A stretch of DNA of 64,000 nt from Candidatus Hermodarchaeota archaeon (GTDB lineage: Archaea > Asgardarchaeota > Hermodarchaeia > Hermodarchaeales > Hermodarchaeaceae): assembly GCA_016839805.1 (NCBI GenBank), contig JAEOTO010000033.1, positions 1-64,000 of the forward strand, written 5' to 3'. The translations under genes and the position numbers were made by a program. How positions within the stretch are numbered: position 1 is the first letter of the stretch; the number at the start of each line of letters is the position of its first letter. A model generated the notes under the pieces. It saw only the letters and a list, made by a program, of their open reading frames with translations, did no database searches and was not told the origin of the DNA. Shown piece after piece: positions 20,526 to 24,745 of the stretch.

Positions 20526-21398
20526 TTGAGAGTTATGTCTACCCCAAAGCCAATTGAGGTTCTTTTTGATACAGGTCATAACGATGAAGTAGCTCCAGAC
20601 GAACCAGAACTTTCCCTGTTAGGAGAACTGCTCAAAAAAAATGCAATTAATTTTAACTTTACTAAGAACCCCCTTACCCCCGATTTATTTGAGAATTGTC
20701 ACGTTTTGGTGCTTGGGAATCCTCTTGACGCAGCATTTACTTCAGATGAAATTTCAGCCATCGTTTCTTTTGTTGAATCGGGAGGAGGACTGTTATTGAT
20801 TAGTGGAGCGACGATATTTGGAAAAGGCGGTGATTCGGCTCGTAGCACTAATCTTAACACAATAACAAAGGAATTCGACTTTGAATTTTCAGATAAGGCA
20901 ATCGCCATTTCGGAGGAACAAATCACAGCCATACCAAGTGCGCAACATCCTGTCGTTAAAGGTATTCGTCAACTTGAGTTTACCACTGGAACAAGTATCA
21001 AACCAGGTGATACTAGCACTCATCTTTTTCGGGCAACAAATATTCCAGGTAGCCCGACAATAGTAATTGCTACAGAGAGTGGAAAGGGACGAATATTAGC
21101 AATCGGTGGTGCTACACCTTTCTTTAATGATCATATTCAGGCTAGCGATCATGACTCATTTATAATTCAAGCTCTTTATTGGCTAGCTGGAGTTTCACCC
21201 ATTCCTTCAGTTACACGGTTAACGACTCCAAGTGAGGAAGTTGATGAAGTCCTAGCCCAGGAGGTAATTGATGACCTTCGGCAACAGCTTGAGCGCTTAG
21301 AACGAGAACTCAATGAGCTTAGAAATACAATCAATACTAGTTTGAAAGAAATGGAAAAAGTCATCCGAGAATTCCAACAAGATGAAGAGTCGACCTAG
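20526..21398 (+). CDS. Cytoplasmic GIFT (GldG/IFT52)-domain protein with C-terminal coiled coil
   Basis: VLFDTGHN, VLVLGNP...FTSDEISAIVSFVESGGGLLL, GKGGD...TNLNTITKEF, GKGRILAIG...WL; heptad tail; no signal peptide. Confidence 0.75.
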   Translation: MRVMSTPKPIEVLFDTGHNDEVAPDEPELSLLGELLKKNAINFNFTKNPLTPDLFENCHVLVLGNPLDAAFTSDEISAIVSFVESGGGLLLISGATIFGKGGDSARSTNLNTITKEFDFEFSDKAIAISEEQITAIPSAQHPVVKGIRQLEFTTGTSIKPGDTSTHLFRATNIPGSPTIVIATESGKGRILAIGGATPFFNDHIQASDHDSFIIQALYWLAGVSPIPSVTRLTTPSEEVDEVLAQEVIDDLRQQLERLERELNELRNTINTSLKEMEKVIREFQQDEEST

Positions 21399-21416: not shown

Positions 21417-22082
21417 CTATTTGGATGTATAAACAACTAGTTTTTCGATAGCTATTCGCCGCTCTAATTGGATTGCCCCAAGATTTTGTAAAGCCTGAAA
21501 ATCTACAATAATTTGAAAAAGCGGTCGATTCAGTATGGCGGCTAGTTCTTCTATTGATCGATCATCATTAACAGCTTCTAGTAGTGGATGGAGTTTGGAA
21601 GGAACCTGGCTTTCGGTGACAGTATGAACACGAACTGGAACATACCGTTCAGTGACAGCAAATGGTCGAAAAAGATAATCAATTAACGGCTGAAATTCCC
21701 GGAATGGACTTAAATCACCTAACCAATCTTGTAAGAGTTCTCCTTTTTGAAGTTCAATTCTTTTAATAAGCATACGCATTCGCGTTCGAATGGCAGCGAG
21801 GTCATGGGTTGAAAATGCAGCAACGTAGATATTTTGCCCATATTCAATGAGAATCTTCACATCTTCTCGATCGATGACCCGTAACCGTCCATCTTCCCGC
21901 TCTAATGTTCGTAGTTGTTGACCTTCCTCTGAGATGCGCCCAACAAGATCAGATAAAAACATACTCACAGCTGATAGGAAACCGGTAACGAGATCAGGTT
22001 CCATATTTTCAATCTGGAAGTCTTTTTGCAATAAAGTCCGTCCATCCCGATAGACAACATACAGACTATACAGTTGGGCCAT
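21417..22082 (-). CDS. Longin-domain + winged-helix protein (NPRL2-like architecture)
   Basis: LYVVYRDGRTLL...DLVTGFLSAVSMF longin motif; C-terminal YVPV...LLEAVNDDRSIEELA...LQNLGAI wHTH. Confidence 0.75.
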   Translation of the reverse strand: MAQLYSLYVVYRDGRTLLQKDFQIENMEPDLVTGFLSAVSMFLSDLVGRISEEGQQLRTLEREDGRLRVIDREDVKILIEYGQNIYVAAFSTHDLAAIRTRMRMLIKRIELQKGELLQDWLGDLSPFREFQPLIDYLFRPFAVTERYVPVRVHTVTESQVPSKLHPLLEAVNDDRSIEELAAILNRPLFQIIVDFQALQNLGAIQLERRIAIEKLVVYTSK

Positions 22083-22168
22083 ATCAAAGCACCAAGGTCT
22101 AATTCTCATTGATAGGTATGAAAAGAGATAAGCTTTACTAGAAAATAGTTAACGCAATAATAGCGCTA

Positions 22169-24745
22169 CTATGTTCGGGCTTGTGCGATTCGGTGGATTT
22201 CTCTGATGATTTCAGTGGGAGTTGTGAGTTCGTCTCCAATGTAAGTACGCCCTGAAGTGATATACGCCATATAAAATGCTAGAAATGGCACGAGTTTATC
22301 TTCTTTAATTCCAACCTCAATATAGTTGGCTTTATCAAGTTCATGGGCTCTTTTGTGAGCCCAATCTAAAATGACGTTATGATGGCGTTTGCCCTTAATT
22401 TTGAAGAACTCATGATGCAAATTAATTGTTATTAGCGGAATACGGTCACCTGCTAGGAGGAAACATTGGTGAAGCACGTCTGCGATGGCTTCCGGTAATC
22501 CCAAGTCAGGTGTGTCATTGCTGCTTAATTTGATATTCGGTAGGAAATCACTAAAGACGACGATCAGGGGAAGAGTACCAGGATTACGTCGTCGTTCGCG
22601 TTTAATGGTTTCACGAGCTCGTTTTAACCCGGCAGCAAGTGGGGTGTAACCAGAAAGTCGAAGGGTCATCAGTTTGGCCACTAAACGGGTCCAATTTGTG
22701 GTGGGAGTTTGCACTTCTGCAGCCCCCCAATCTTTCAATGCTATAAGTCCAACCCGATCTTTTGTACCCTCGAGACAGTTCTTAAAGGCAATCAGGGAGA
22801 GTTGGAGTTTTTCGAAATTTTTTACCATAGACACGCTTAGATCGACAACGAAGATAATCGTGAGTGGCGTTCGACTACGAAAACGTTTTTCCCGAATATC
22901 ACTTGCTCGAATCTTGACTCGGGGGGTTCGATTCGCTGCAGGATCTTGAAGAAGAGAAGCGGCCGTAATGGTTGCGGGAATATGAATATTCCGTGGCTTA
23001 CCTGAAGGTAGTCTTGAACCTAATAGGACCCCTCCCTGAGCGGTTCTAGAATGTGCAGATCCAGCACGTCGCCCCACTTGTTGAATAGACCATTTCGGGG
23101 CTCGTTGTCGTCCGAAATAACGGGGTTCTAGTAAATCTTCAAGATGAAAGAGAGGTCTACCTTCCTCAAGTCGGATGAGTGAGGAGGCGGAAAAGGGTTT
23201 AGGGGACCTAGGTTGTTGTTGAATCGAGATTTTTGCAGATGATGGGGTTGACGTGCCAATCGTTGGGGGGCTCGTAGATTCACCTCTATGTCTTGCACGA
23301 TGATATTTTCCTCCCGGATCTGGTGGTCTATCTCCAGAGGCGAGAGAGGGCATCACGGAGTACGCACGTCTATAGCGCCGCATTATCCGTTCTAATAAGA
23401 GTACTAATCCTGCAGCAATAATGCCTCCAATTACGAAATTTACGGGAAAGAGCGGGATTAGTAAACCAATTGCTAAGGCGATGACGATGTAGAAACATAC
23501 AAATCCTAAATACGAGCATCGCCCTGGCGGACCTTTGCTAGGTGGGGTTCCAAAAAAACGCTGATCATCCTGATTGCTATCTAGCGGATAGTATTGACCA
23601 AATTTCCGAGTAAGCTTCTGGTGCTTCTCTTTATCAGAAGGGGATTTATCCTTCGATTGAGGGTCTTTCGTCTTAACTTTCTTTTTTGCTTCCTTCAAGG
23701 TGGAACTAATATCTGCACGAGTGGGAGGTTCTAAGATTCCACGTTGTCGGGTTCGATGGCTAAGGGCTAGTGATGCAACTGTTTCAATGTCTTCAACTGT
23801 CACTTTCGTTCGACCATCAAAGGCTGCAAACGCCATGGCTGTCTTTGCGATTACTATATCTGGACGTGCACCATCTACTTGTAAACGTGAGGTAAGATTT
23901 GCGATAAGTTGCATCACGGCCTCAGGAATTACCACGTCTTTCATGCGTTCACGCGCTGCAGCGATTTCTTTGCTTAATTTCTCTTCTTTAGGGGCCCATT
24001 TTGCATTCATTGTTTTCGGATCACGTTCAAATGCAATATTCAACCGAATAATTTCGACACGTTCTTCTTCCGTAAAGGGGCGATGGATGGCAACATGGAG
24101 GGGAAATCGGTCTAGTAATTGGGGACGAAGTTCGCCTTCTTCTGGATTCATTGAACCAATGAAAATGAAACGGGCAGGATGACTTACTGAAATGCCTTCC
24201 CTTTCAACGACATTAACACCTGTGGCCGCAGCATCAAGAAGTGAATCAACGATGTGATCAGGAAGCAAATTCACTTCATCAACGTAAAGCAGATTCTGAT
24301 TCGCATCAGCTAAAATCCCTGGTTTTAATGCAGCGACGCCATCCCGAATAGCTCGTTCGACATCTAAACTACCAACGACCCGGTCCTCAGTAGCACTTAA
24401 GGGGAGATTTATCACGCGCATTTTACGTGTTTCAGTTTCGAGTTTCTCCTTCGCTTGAAGCTTCGTCAAGCAGGCCTCACAAAGGACAGAGTTATCATCA
24501 GTAGAGCAGCGGAATTGACAACCTTTTACGACTGGTATTTCAGGTAATAGAACTGCCAAGGAGCGAACAATCGTTGTTTTTCCTGTGCCTTTAGGTCCAG
24601 TGATGAGGAGACCTCCAATACGTGGATTGATGGCATTGAGTAGAAGAGCAAGTTTCAATTCATCATGATTGACAATAGCTGTGAAAGGAAGCGTTACCCG
24701 CGTTCCAGCCGTCTCATCTAGGACCAACGTGTGACCCTCAACCAC
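22169..24745 (-). CDS. ChlI/ChlD-like AAA+ ATPase - TM hairpin - vWA fusion
   Basis: [39 protein letters not shown]; two central TM helices; Pro/Ser-rich linker; MIDAS DLSVS, TPLAAGL, FSD. Confidence 0.88.

Follow-up and report, generated by a model that had tools for sequence, protein, structure and literature searches.

An Asgard longin and winged-helix protein from a Hermodarchaeota genome: likeness to NPRL2 and a possible link to small GTPases

The locus considered here raises the question of whether a short archaeal protein carries the core of a eukaryotic GATOR1 subunit, and whether it regulates small GTPases as a member of that complex would. The window analysed is a stretch of 64,000 nucleotides from Candidatus Hermodarchaeota archaeon (assembly GCA_016839805.1, contig JAEOTO010000033.1, positions 1 to 64,000 of the forward strand), and the protein, referred to below as the target, is a 221-residue longin and winged-helix protein encoded by the open reading frame (ORF) at 21417-22082 on the reverse strand. 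An initial annotation made from the DNA sequence had described it as a minimal archaeal precursor of the GATOR1 subunit architecture, related to NPRL2, and possibly a regulator of small GTPases. The conclusion reached here is that the target very probably has a longin plus NPRL2-type winged-helix architecture, with a winged helix homologous to that of NPRL2. The parts of the gene referred to in what follows are these:

21417..22082, reverse strand: whole coding sequence of the target, 221 residues plus stop (from the ORF list, translation, homologues and the ratio of nonsynonymous to synonymous substitution rates, dN/dS)
21657..22082, reverse strand: longin domain, residues 1-142
21879..21941, reverse strand: orthologue-specific insertion after helix α1, GRISEEGQQLRTLEREDGRLR, residues 48-68
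21444..21656, reverse strand: winged helix with its leading strand, residues 143-213 (from the AlphaFold2 model and profile matches)

The target is a genuine gene under purifying selection. In a collection of 5.8 billion proteins it has 51 homologues with E ≤ 7e-68, nearly all of 218-224 residues and from Asgard metagenome-assembled genomes (MAGs), and the mean column identity across 22 aligned family members is 71%. Comparison with three orthologous loci gave dN/dS values of 0.09-0.12. The N-terminus reads MAQLYS; an alternative in-frame ATG at 22109, 27 nucleotides upstream, would add nine residues, and the start at 22082 is preferred because all aligned orthologues begin with Met at that position. 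Both of the motifs to which the initial annotation had drawn attention are present, YVVYRDGRTLL...DLVTGFLSAV at residues 8-39 and YVPV...LLEAVNDDRSIEELAAILN..LFQIIVDFQALQNLGAI at residues 147-204. In each of the 14 genomes of the GTDB genus to which the window belongs an orthologue was found (68-91% identity), and in the four genomes of the sister genus none; the next best matches come from other families of the phylum and are 314-330 residues long, with 28-30% identity. Named records with orthologues are mostly Hermodarchaeota or unclassified Promethearchaeota MAGs, the closest being 92% identical, and a few metagenomic orthologues stand at 52-59% identity. The impression of strong constraint given by this very high conservation is tempered because all orthologues found among the GTDB genomes searched belong to one genus. 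Proteins of the family are labelled ‘hypothetical’ in databases, and protein atlas searches returned Asgard clusters without names and nothing else.

Searches of Pfam, NCBIfam and PDB with the target sequence alone gave nothing significant, the output consisting of HVO_A0114 (E 0.002, under the curated cut-off) and noise. An AlphaFold2 model built from an alignment of 60 sequences (A2) reached a mean predicted local distance difference test score (pLDDT) of 85 and recovered both a winged helix and the longin fold that had been proposed from the sequence. An earlier model from a shallow alignment of 22 sequences (mean pLDDT 73) had left residues 24-73 disordered, a defect that was repaired by the use of A2. 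In the final model the longin domain is composed of β1 (residues 4-11), β2 (16-21), α1 (29-52), β3 (69-72), β4 (75-81), β5 (85-91), α2 (96-118) and α3 (125-142), which is the canonical β-β-α-β-β-β-α-α order, with a five-stranded antiparallel sheet and two C-terminal helices and without an N-terminal helix. A Roadblock/LC7 (MglB-like) fold, in which the order is α-β-β-α-β-β-β with a helix at the N-terminus, was considered and rejected, as the first element of the target model is a strand, at residue 4, and the domain closes with two helices; roadblock structures align with residues 1-119 only and at lower Z scores of 10.2-10.7. The insertion at residues 48-68 is 17-21 residues long in the orthologues and missing from every non-orthologous relative in A2. 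Invariant Arg, Glu and Asp residues abound in it; it has a mean column identity of 81% across the orthologues and is modelled with low confidence, pLDDT falling below 50 at residues 58-63. The longin domain is joined to a single winged helix by a conserved E-x-Y-x-P junction. This second domain is modelled as a strand at residues 144-151 (ERYVPVRV), helices at 162-170, 177-184 and 188-200 and a strand at 204-211, a circularly permuted β-α-α-α-β order in which the first and last strands make the wing. Past the winged helix 8-10 residues follow, with no further domain.

An exhaustive phmmer search of 1.84 billion representative sequences identified 211 relatives of the target. Residues 1-140 make up a recurrent module, found in tandem copies, in fusions to V4R or CARDB domains and as the C-terminal domain of proteins of about 710-760 residues, and both domains of the target occur together in about 17 representative clusters. 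Longer relatives (279-424 residues) carry one or two extra winged helices or a helical tail. A widespread Asgard family of about 710-760 residues, with some 40 similar representatives, has the longin module at the extreme C-terminus of its proteins, and their N-terminal 600 residues or so have no Pfam match.

The relationship of the winged helix to NPRL2 was examined with three profiles. When the A2 profile was compared with all PDB sequences the best match was human NPRL2 (E 3.5e-4, profile positions 129-204 aligning with NPRL2 168-245), with yeast Npr2 at E 0.018. A profile of the winged helix alone, made from 30 sequences (A3), matched NPRL2 171-245 with E 1.7e-5 and yeast Npr2 with E 2.1e-4; the next natural proteins were MJ223 (E 1.3e-3) and a MarR regulator (E 6.6e-3), and the sole score above NPRL2 came from a designed repeat protein, by the summing of five sub-threshold repeats. 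A profile of 16 distant relatives without any member of the target's orthologue group (A4) matched NPRL2 170-242 with E 9.4e-5. Across A2, A3 and A4 the E-value of NPRL2 was 18- to 76-fold better than that of the best natural helix-turn-helix (HTH) of the MarR/ArsR type. The alignments with NPRL2 cover the whole of the winged-helix domain, including the junction (ERYVPVRV in the target, QEYDVPVF in NPRL2) and an ‘IDG-x-R...I’ helix. Pro149, in the junction, is the sole invariant column of A3 and is aligned with the Pro of NPRL2 ‘DVPVF’, and an E-Y-x-V/I-P junction after longin helix α3 is common to the Asgard family and NPRL2. The C-terminal domain is NPRL2-like, as the initial annotation had it, in that the NPRL2/Npr2 segment lying directly after the longin domain outscores any natural winged helix-turn-helix (wHTH) of the MarR/ArsR type. 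The outcome that the annotation had named as evidence against itself, a better match to MarR/ArsR than to NPR2 with no longin fold recovered, was found in neither of its parts.

The target is predicted to form a homodimer through helix α1 and strand β3. Prediction with two copies gave a score of 0.56, against 0.00 for the best of three controls, with a partner pLDDT of 76 and at least 85% of contacts agreeing between runs; 20 of 30 proteins with structures solved as one-chain pairs attain this mark, as does 1 of the 23 solved as single chains. The predicted interface is made by α1 (residues 32-54) and β3 (residues 64-75), with residue 70 facing residue 70, and the insertion at 48-68 is located at this interface (residues 49-54 and 64-75). 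As the geometry is that of the classic longin/roadblock dimer, similarity to structures already solved may account for the pass. Longin and roadblock dimers are known as platforms for small GTPases (PMC3747258).

Further indications of a small-GTPase connection come from relatives of the target. Its genome contains 18 matches to the family profile and approximately 22 small GTPases. Two of the paralogues (282 and 290 residues) overlap downstream Ras/Rab-like GTPase genes by 4 nucleotides and a third is separated by 1.6 kb from a GTPase gene, where by our own estimate about 0.65 longin-GTPase adjacencies within 2 kb would be expected by chance. In a Baldrarchaeia relative a longin domain, winged helix and HTH_47 domain are encoded together in a co-directional cluster with an Arf/Ras GTPase, the start of the gene overlapping the preceding gene by 8 nucleotides, and this cluster is a candidate for a GTPase-regulator operon of the two-domain family. 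In a neighbour cluster of the ESM Atlas, Arf/Ras domains were present in 47% of members. The clusters concerned are as follows:

G000:C26:7479-8878 (L010:3480-4879), target's genome: Fuzzy/Mon1-like longin and Ras/Rab-like GTPase pair, 4-nucleotide overlap
G000:C37:3656-6357 (L011), target's genome: second Fuzzy/Mon1-like longin and Ras/Rab-like GTPase pair, 4-nucleotide overlap
L007:2926-7870, ENA ERZ584659: Baldrarchaeia cluster, co-directional, encoding a TrmB-like protein (352 residues), an Arf/Ras GTPase (275 residues), proteins of 164 and 217 residues, the longin-winged helix-HTH_47 protein (279 residues) and proteins of 171 and 102 residues

In the two pairs on C26 and C37 the longins are 282 or 290 residues long and the GTPases 184 or 182 residues. 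The pair on C37 is followed by a gene for an Rce1-like CAAX protease (406 residues). No CAAX box was found on the GTPases adjacent to the paralogues, which end in LDNMGV and IENMG.

Taken together, these results are best explained, with roughly even confidence in the explanation as a whole, by a two-domain adaptor that acts as a dimeric GTPase platform. The target would be a soluble protein in which a longin domain is followed by a single winged helix homologous to the one after the longin of NPRL2/Npr2. Two copies would pair through α1 and the edge strand β3, giving the continuous sheet that is typical of longin/roadblock dimers, and the dimer would provide a platform for binding and regulating one of the approximately 22 small GTPases of the Ras superfamily, while the acidic winged helix, without a basic recognition helix, would recruit a protein partner instead of DNA. 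That the target itself works as a homodimeric small-GTPase platform is rated at even or a shade below.

A number of observations weigh against this reading. The E-values obtained for NPRL2 with the profiles are significant only at the size of the PDB database, and the A2 profile gave no sequence match to the longin domain of NPRL2. As to superposition on NPRL2, which had been suggested as a check, in Foldseek searches with both models of the target NPRL2/Npr2 chains were among the top matches (9o5a_H 5.5e-5, 8adl_S 1.9e-4, 9v0j_A 2.3e-4) and gave the longest alignments, of about 255 columns over both domains, but the template modelling scores (TM-scores) against NPRL2 chains were only 0.23-0.30, with root-mean-square deviations of 11-16 Å, and because of these scores the two-domain arrangement does not superpose globally on NPRL2. 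When the Foldseek matches were re-ranked with VIA-align, the structures nearest to the longin domain of the target were the longins of TRAPP, Fuzzy and SNARE proteins, and NPRL2 was not among the top 50, although this ranking hardly probes the winged helix because the list is filled by the longin domain alone. None of the small GTPases of the genome is encoded on the window's contig. The suggestion of a small-GTPase regulator draws support from paralogous longin genes of the same genome, which overlap GTPase genes; the conserved neighbours of the target itself are AAA+/VWA, GIFT and CDC48 genes. Identity between the GTPase-linked paralogues and the target is only about 21-24%, and their C-terminal parts differ; the GTPase links hold at the level of the family.

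The remaining observations of this kind concern the catalytic motifs. A GP motif at the end of the β1-β2 loop or the start of β2 has been reported to be specific to the longin GTPase-activating proteins (GAPs) NPRL2, FLCN, SMCR8 and C9orf72 (PMC12290439). The corresponding region of the target reads YVVYRDGRTLLQKDF, no orthologue has a Pro in that stretch, and the GP motif is judged to be absent because there is no Pro in residues 10-20. Gly14 is invariant in all 60 aligned sequences and is followed by Arg or another residue, never by Pro. In the β4-β5 loop (YG-x-N) the target has Gln83, where the orthologues have Lys, Arg or Gln. We tentatively take this loop to be the counterpart of the Arg78 finger loop of NPRL2. 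The family has other invariant arginines, namely R15, R49, R62, R68 and R72, and reviews place the arginine finger of NPRL2 on ‘a loop of the longin domain’ (PMC8534245). As the GP motif is absent and the β4-β5 loop lacks a conserved Arg, the GAP activity associated with the NPRL2 comparison is not borne out, and a classic arginine-finger mechanism of the NPRL2 type is unlikely for the target because the first hallmark is missing and the second apparently so. The target may act as a GAP, as a GEF (guanine nucleotide exchange factor) or as a scaffold.

Membership of the target in GATOR1 is not supported. At E ≤ 1 Pfam NPR2 (PF06218) matched neither the target nor anything else in its genome, and NPR3 and IML1 (DEPDC5) likewise had no match in this genome, which is an 86.7% complete MAG in which absence is not proof; a single member of the 60 in the target family matches NPR2, with E 0.0029. 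The description of the target as a precursor of GATOR1 is likewise not supported. Its true orthologues occur in one genus only, no Pfam NPR2, NPR3 or IML1 is found, and it carries a single winged helix, after which NPRL2 continues into further C-terminal domain. The confinement of the orthologues to one genus makes the target a lineage-specific member of a large family of Asgard paralogues. At the level of that family a bolder proposal can be made, that the Asgard longin plus permuted winged-helix proteins are true homologues of the longin and first winged-helix half of NPRL2/NPRL3, a homodimer from before the duplication which acts on Rag-like or Arf-like GTPases without an arginine finger. 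This we hold to be unlikely; if true, it would provide a living model of the GATOR1 core at a stage preceding the addition of DEPDC5, of the GP/Arg catalytic motifs and of further C-terminal domains.

A different role for the target is suggested by its neighbours, which are the following:

22169..24745, reverse strand: AAA+/VWA gene, ChlI/ChlD-like, 858 residues (Pfam, NCBIfam), upstream of the target and co-directional, with an 86-nucleotide gap
20526..21398, forward strand: GIFT/DUF4350-like gene, 290 residues (IFT52_GIFT, E 4.4e-8), convergent, with 18 nucleotides between the stop codons
15480-20436, reverse strand: genes for CDC48, a 282-residue protein, a Band7/SPFH-like protein of 411 residues and a 182-residue protein, a run kept at every orthologous locus fetched

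The order Macro, AAA+/VWA (about 855 residues), target, GIFT (convergent), CDC48, 282-residue protein, Band7-like protein and a protein of about 182-185 residues was observed at every orthologous locus that was examined, including those with identity as low as 54%. The AAA+ and VWA domains of the 858-residue protein are parted by a long linker, with a weak match to DUF7322 at residues 421-460. The GIFT protein appears cytoplasmic and has a C-terminal coiled-coil-like tail; its orthologues are found in 13 of the 14 genomes of the window's genus and in none of the four of the sister genus, which is the phyletic pattern of the target. This co-occurrence is weak evidence, as it amounts to a single event among close relatives. 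GIFT evolves faster than the target (48-58% against 71-75% identity), and distant GIFT paralogues are present in 188 of 251 genomes of the phylum. It could be proposed from this arrangement that the target is an adaptor or regulatory subunit of the machinery encoded by the AAA+/VWA and GIFT genes and the CDC48 run, with no GTPase role, its longin domain and winged helix being protein-interaction modules in membrane-associated remodelling or quality control. The position of the target directly downstream of AAA+/VWA on the same strand, the retained gene order and the pattern shared with GIFT are all in agreement with this, and the acidic insertion might provide a ligand for the metal ion-dependent adhesion site (MIDAS) of the VWA domain. 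The shared order may however be simple inheritance, as the genomes are all close relatives, the GIFT gene, being convergent, does not share an operon with the target, and more distant two-domain relatives have unrelated neighbours. Both genera of the family have AAA+/VWA orthologues (62-93% identity), and AAA+/VWA was rejected as an obligate partner because the sister genus keeps it (62% identity) without a longin-winged helix gene alongside. A role confined to this machinery is considered improbable.

It is also conceivable that the resemblance to NPRL2 is convergent or trivial, a generic longin domain and a generic winged helix having been fused independently. The modest E-values (1.7e-5 at best), the lack of an NPRL2-specific signal in the longin domain, the shuffling of longin domains into many Asgard architectures and the placing of a designed repeat protein above NPRL2 in one search would all be expected on such an account. 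It is more difficult to reconcile with the fact that human and yeast NPR2 both score with three different profiles, with alignments that span the whole domain and share the junction after α3, and with the 18- to 76-fold lead of NPRL2 over the best natural MarR/ArsR-type match. Convergence is for these reasons considered quite improbable, and a homologous winged helix is preferred.

As to what this winged helix binds, its net charge is between -6 and +1 across the orthologues, and helix 3, the presumed recognition helix, is PLFQIIVDFQALQNL, which is largely hydrophobic and in the target contains no Lys or Arg. Pfam HTH_47 (PF16221) is matched by 11 of the 60 relatives (best E 9.8e-7), although not by the target, and its topology fits the model; this domain is a circularly permuted wHTH that was proposed by those who described it to be a peptide-recognition module (PMC4000134). 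In a review of GATOR the TINI domain of NPRL2 is reported to touch the SABA domain of DEPDC5 (PMC8534245). The matched segment, NPRL2 168-245, may do no more than overlap TINI. These sequence features make it more likely that the winged helix binds protein rather than DNA. A one-component transcription regulator, in which the winged helix would sit on DNA with the longin domain as sensor of a ligand or protein partner, is very improbable: DNA binding is usual for archaeal wHTH domains, weak matches to MarR, AsnC and ArsR regulators (E 1.3e-3 to 0.1) and to HVO_A0114 were seen and NPRL2-like longins fused to two-component signalling domains are known (Liu et al.), but the charge of the domain and its recognition helix, the best PDB matches being to NPRL2/Npr2, whose domain makes protein contacts, and the proposed peptide recognition by HTH_47, its closest Pfam relative, all point the other way.

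The preferred reading, a dimeric two-domain adaptor, has some bearing on the origins of eukaryotic nutrient signalling. If the homology is real, the core of a GAP subunit of that pathway, a longin domain with a protein-binding winged helix, was already present in Asgard archaea, and the family would help to trace the switching of longin platforms between GEF and GAP roles in eukaryogenesis. The target is small and probably homodimeric, and is open to direct expression and to tests of GTPase binding, of GAP or GEF activity and of partner choice. The idea at the level of the family is already published, since Asgard NPRL2-like longin proteins were described by Liu et al., and the target is a new, narrowly distributed member of this known Asgard family. 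What has been added here is the sequence evidence on the winged helix, the negative results on catalytic motifs, the predicted homodimer and the gene context.

Among known systems a functional analogy is offered by the actinobacterial conservon, which comprises the roadblock protein MfpD/CvnB, the DUF742 protein MfpC/CvnC and the GTPase MfpB/CvnD, and in which proteins of the roadblock/longin superfamily and small HTH proteins regulate a Ras-like GTPase. MfpC has been reported as a GEF (PMC11343762), and the title of PMC9769811 calls MfpD a GAP of MfpB. The conservon differs in that each component has a gene of its own and the fold is that of roadblock, and in that the target has no adjacent GTPase or kinase; a link between DUF742 and the target family was rejected for lack of significance (matches in 4 of 60 members, best E 0.041). 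The HTH_47 domain of CA_C2195 shares with the target the β-α-α-α-β order and a wing made of the first and last strands, although CA_C2195 is a bacterial metallopeptidase-like protein without a longin domain. Relatives of the target weakly match Pfam Sybindin, Fuz_longin_1 and Intu_longin_1, the families of TRAPPC1/C4 (Bet5/Trs23, sybindin) and of the first longins of Fuzzy/Mon1. These longins are eukaryotic dimeric platforms for Rab GEFs, but they have no NPRL2-type winged helix and act inside multi-subunit TRAPP or tri-longin complexes. The Asgard longins of the FLCN/SMCR8 type described in a 2025 paper in Traffic possess the GP and Arg motifs and are a class distinct from the target.

The closest comparison remains that with NPRL2/Npr2. 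In both a longin domain is followed by a winged helix that opens with an E-Y-x-V-P strand and contains an ‘IDG-x-R...I(A/S)’ helix, and in both there is pairing through the longin domain, NPRL2 with NPRL3 (PMC8534245) and the target, as predicted, with itself. They differ in length, the target having 221 residues and NPRL2/Npr2 at least 380, and in the C-terminal domain that in NPRL2 lies beyond the first winged helix and pairs with that of NPRL3, which the target does not have. Within Asgard archaea, Liu et al. (bioRxiv 10.1101/2020.10.19.343400; Nature 2021) identified NPRL2-like proteins with a longin and a C-terminal domain in Thor and a few Loki MAGs, together with a large family in which NPRL2-like longin modules are joined to many different domains. 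The group to which the target belongs differs from these in its occurrence in Hermodarchaeota-labelled MAGs, in its restriction to a single GTDB genus and in its insertion of 17-21 residues, while the 211 representative matches and the many architectures found here agree with the picture of the family given by these authors.

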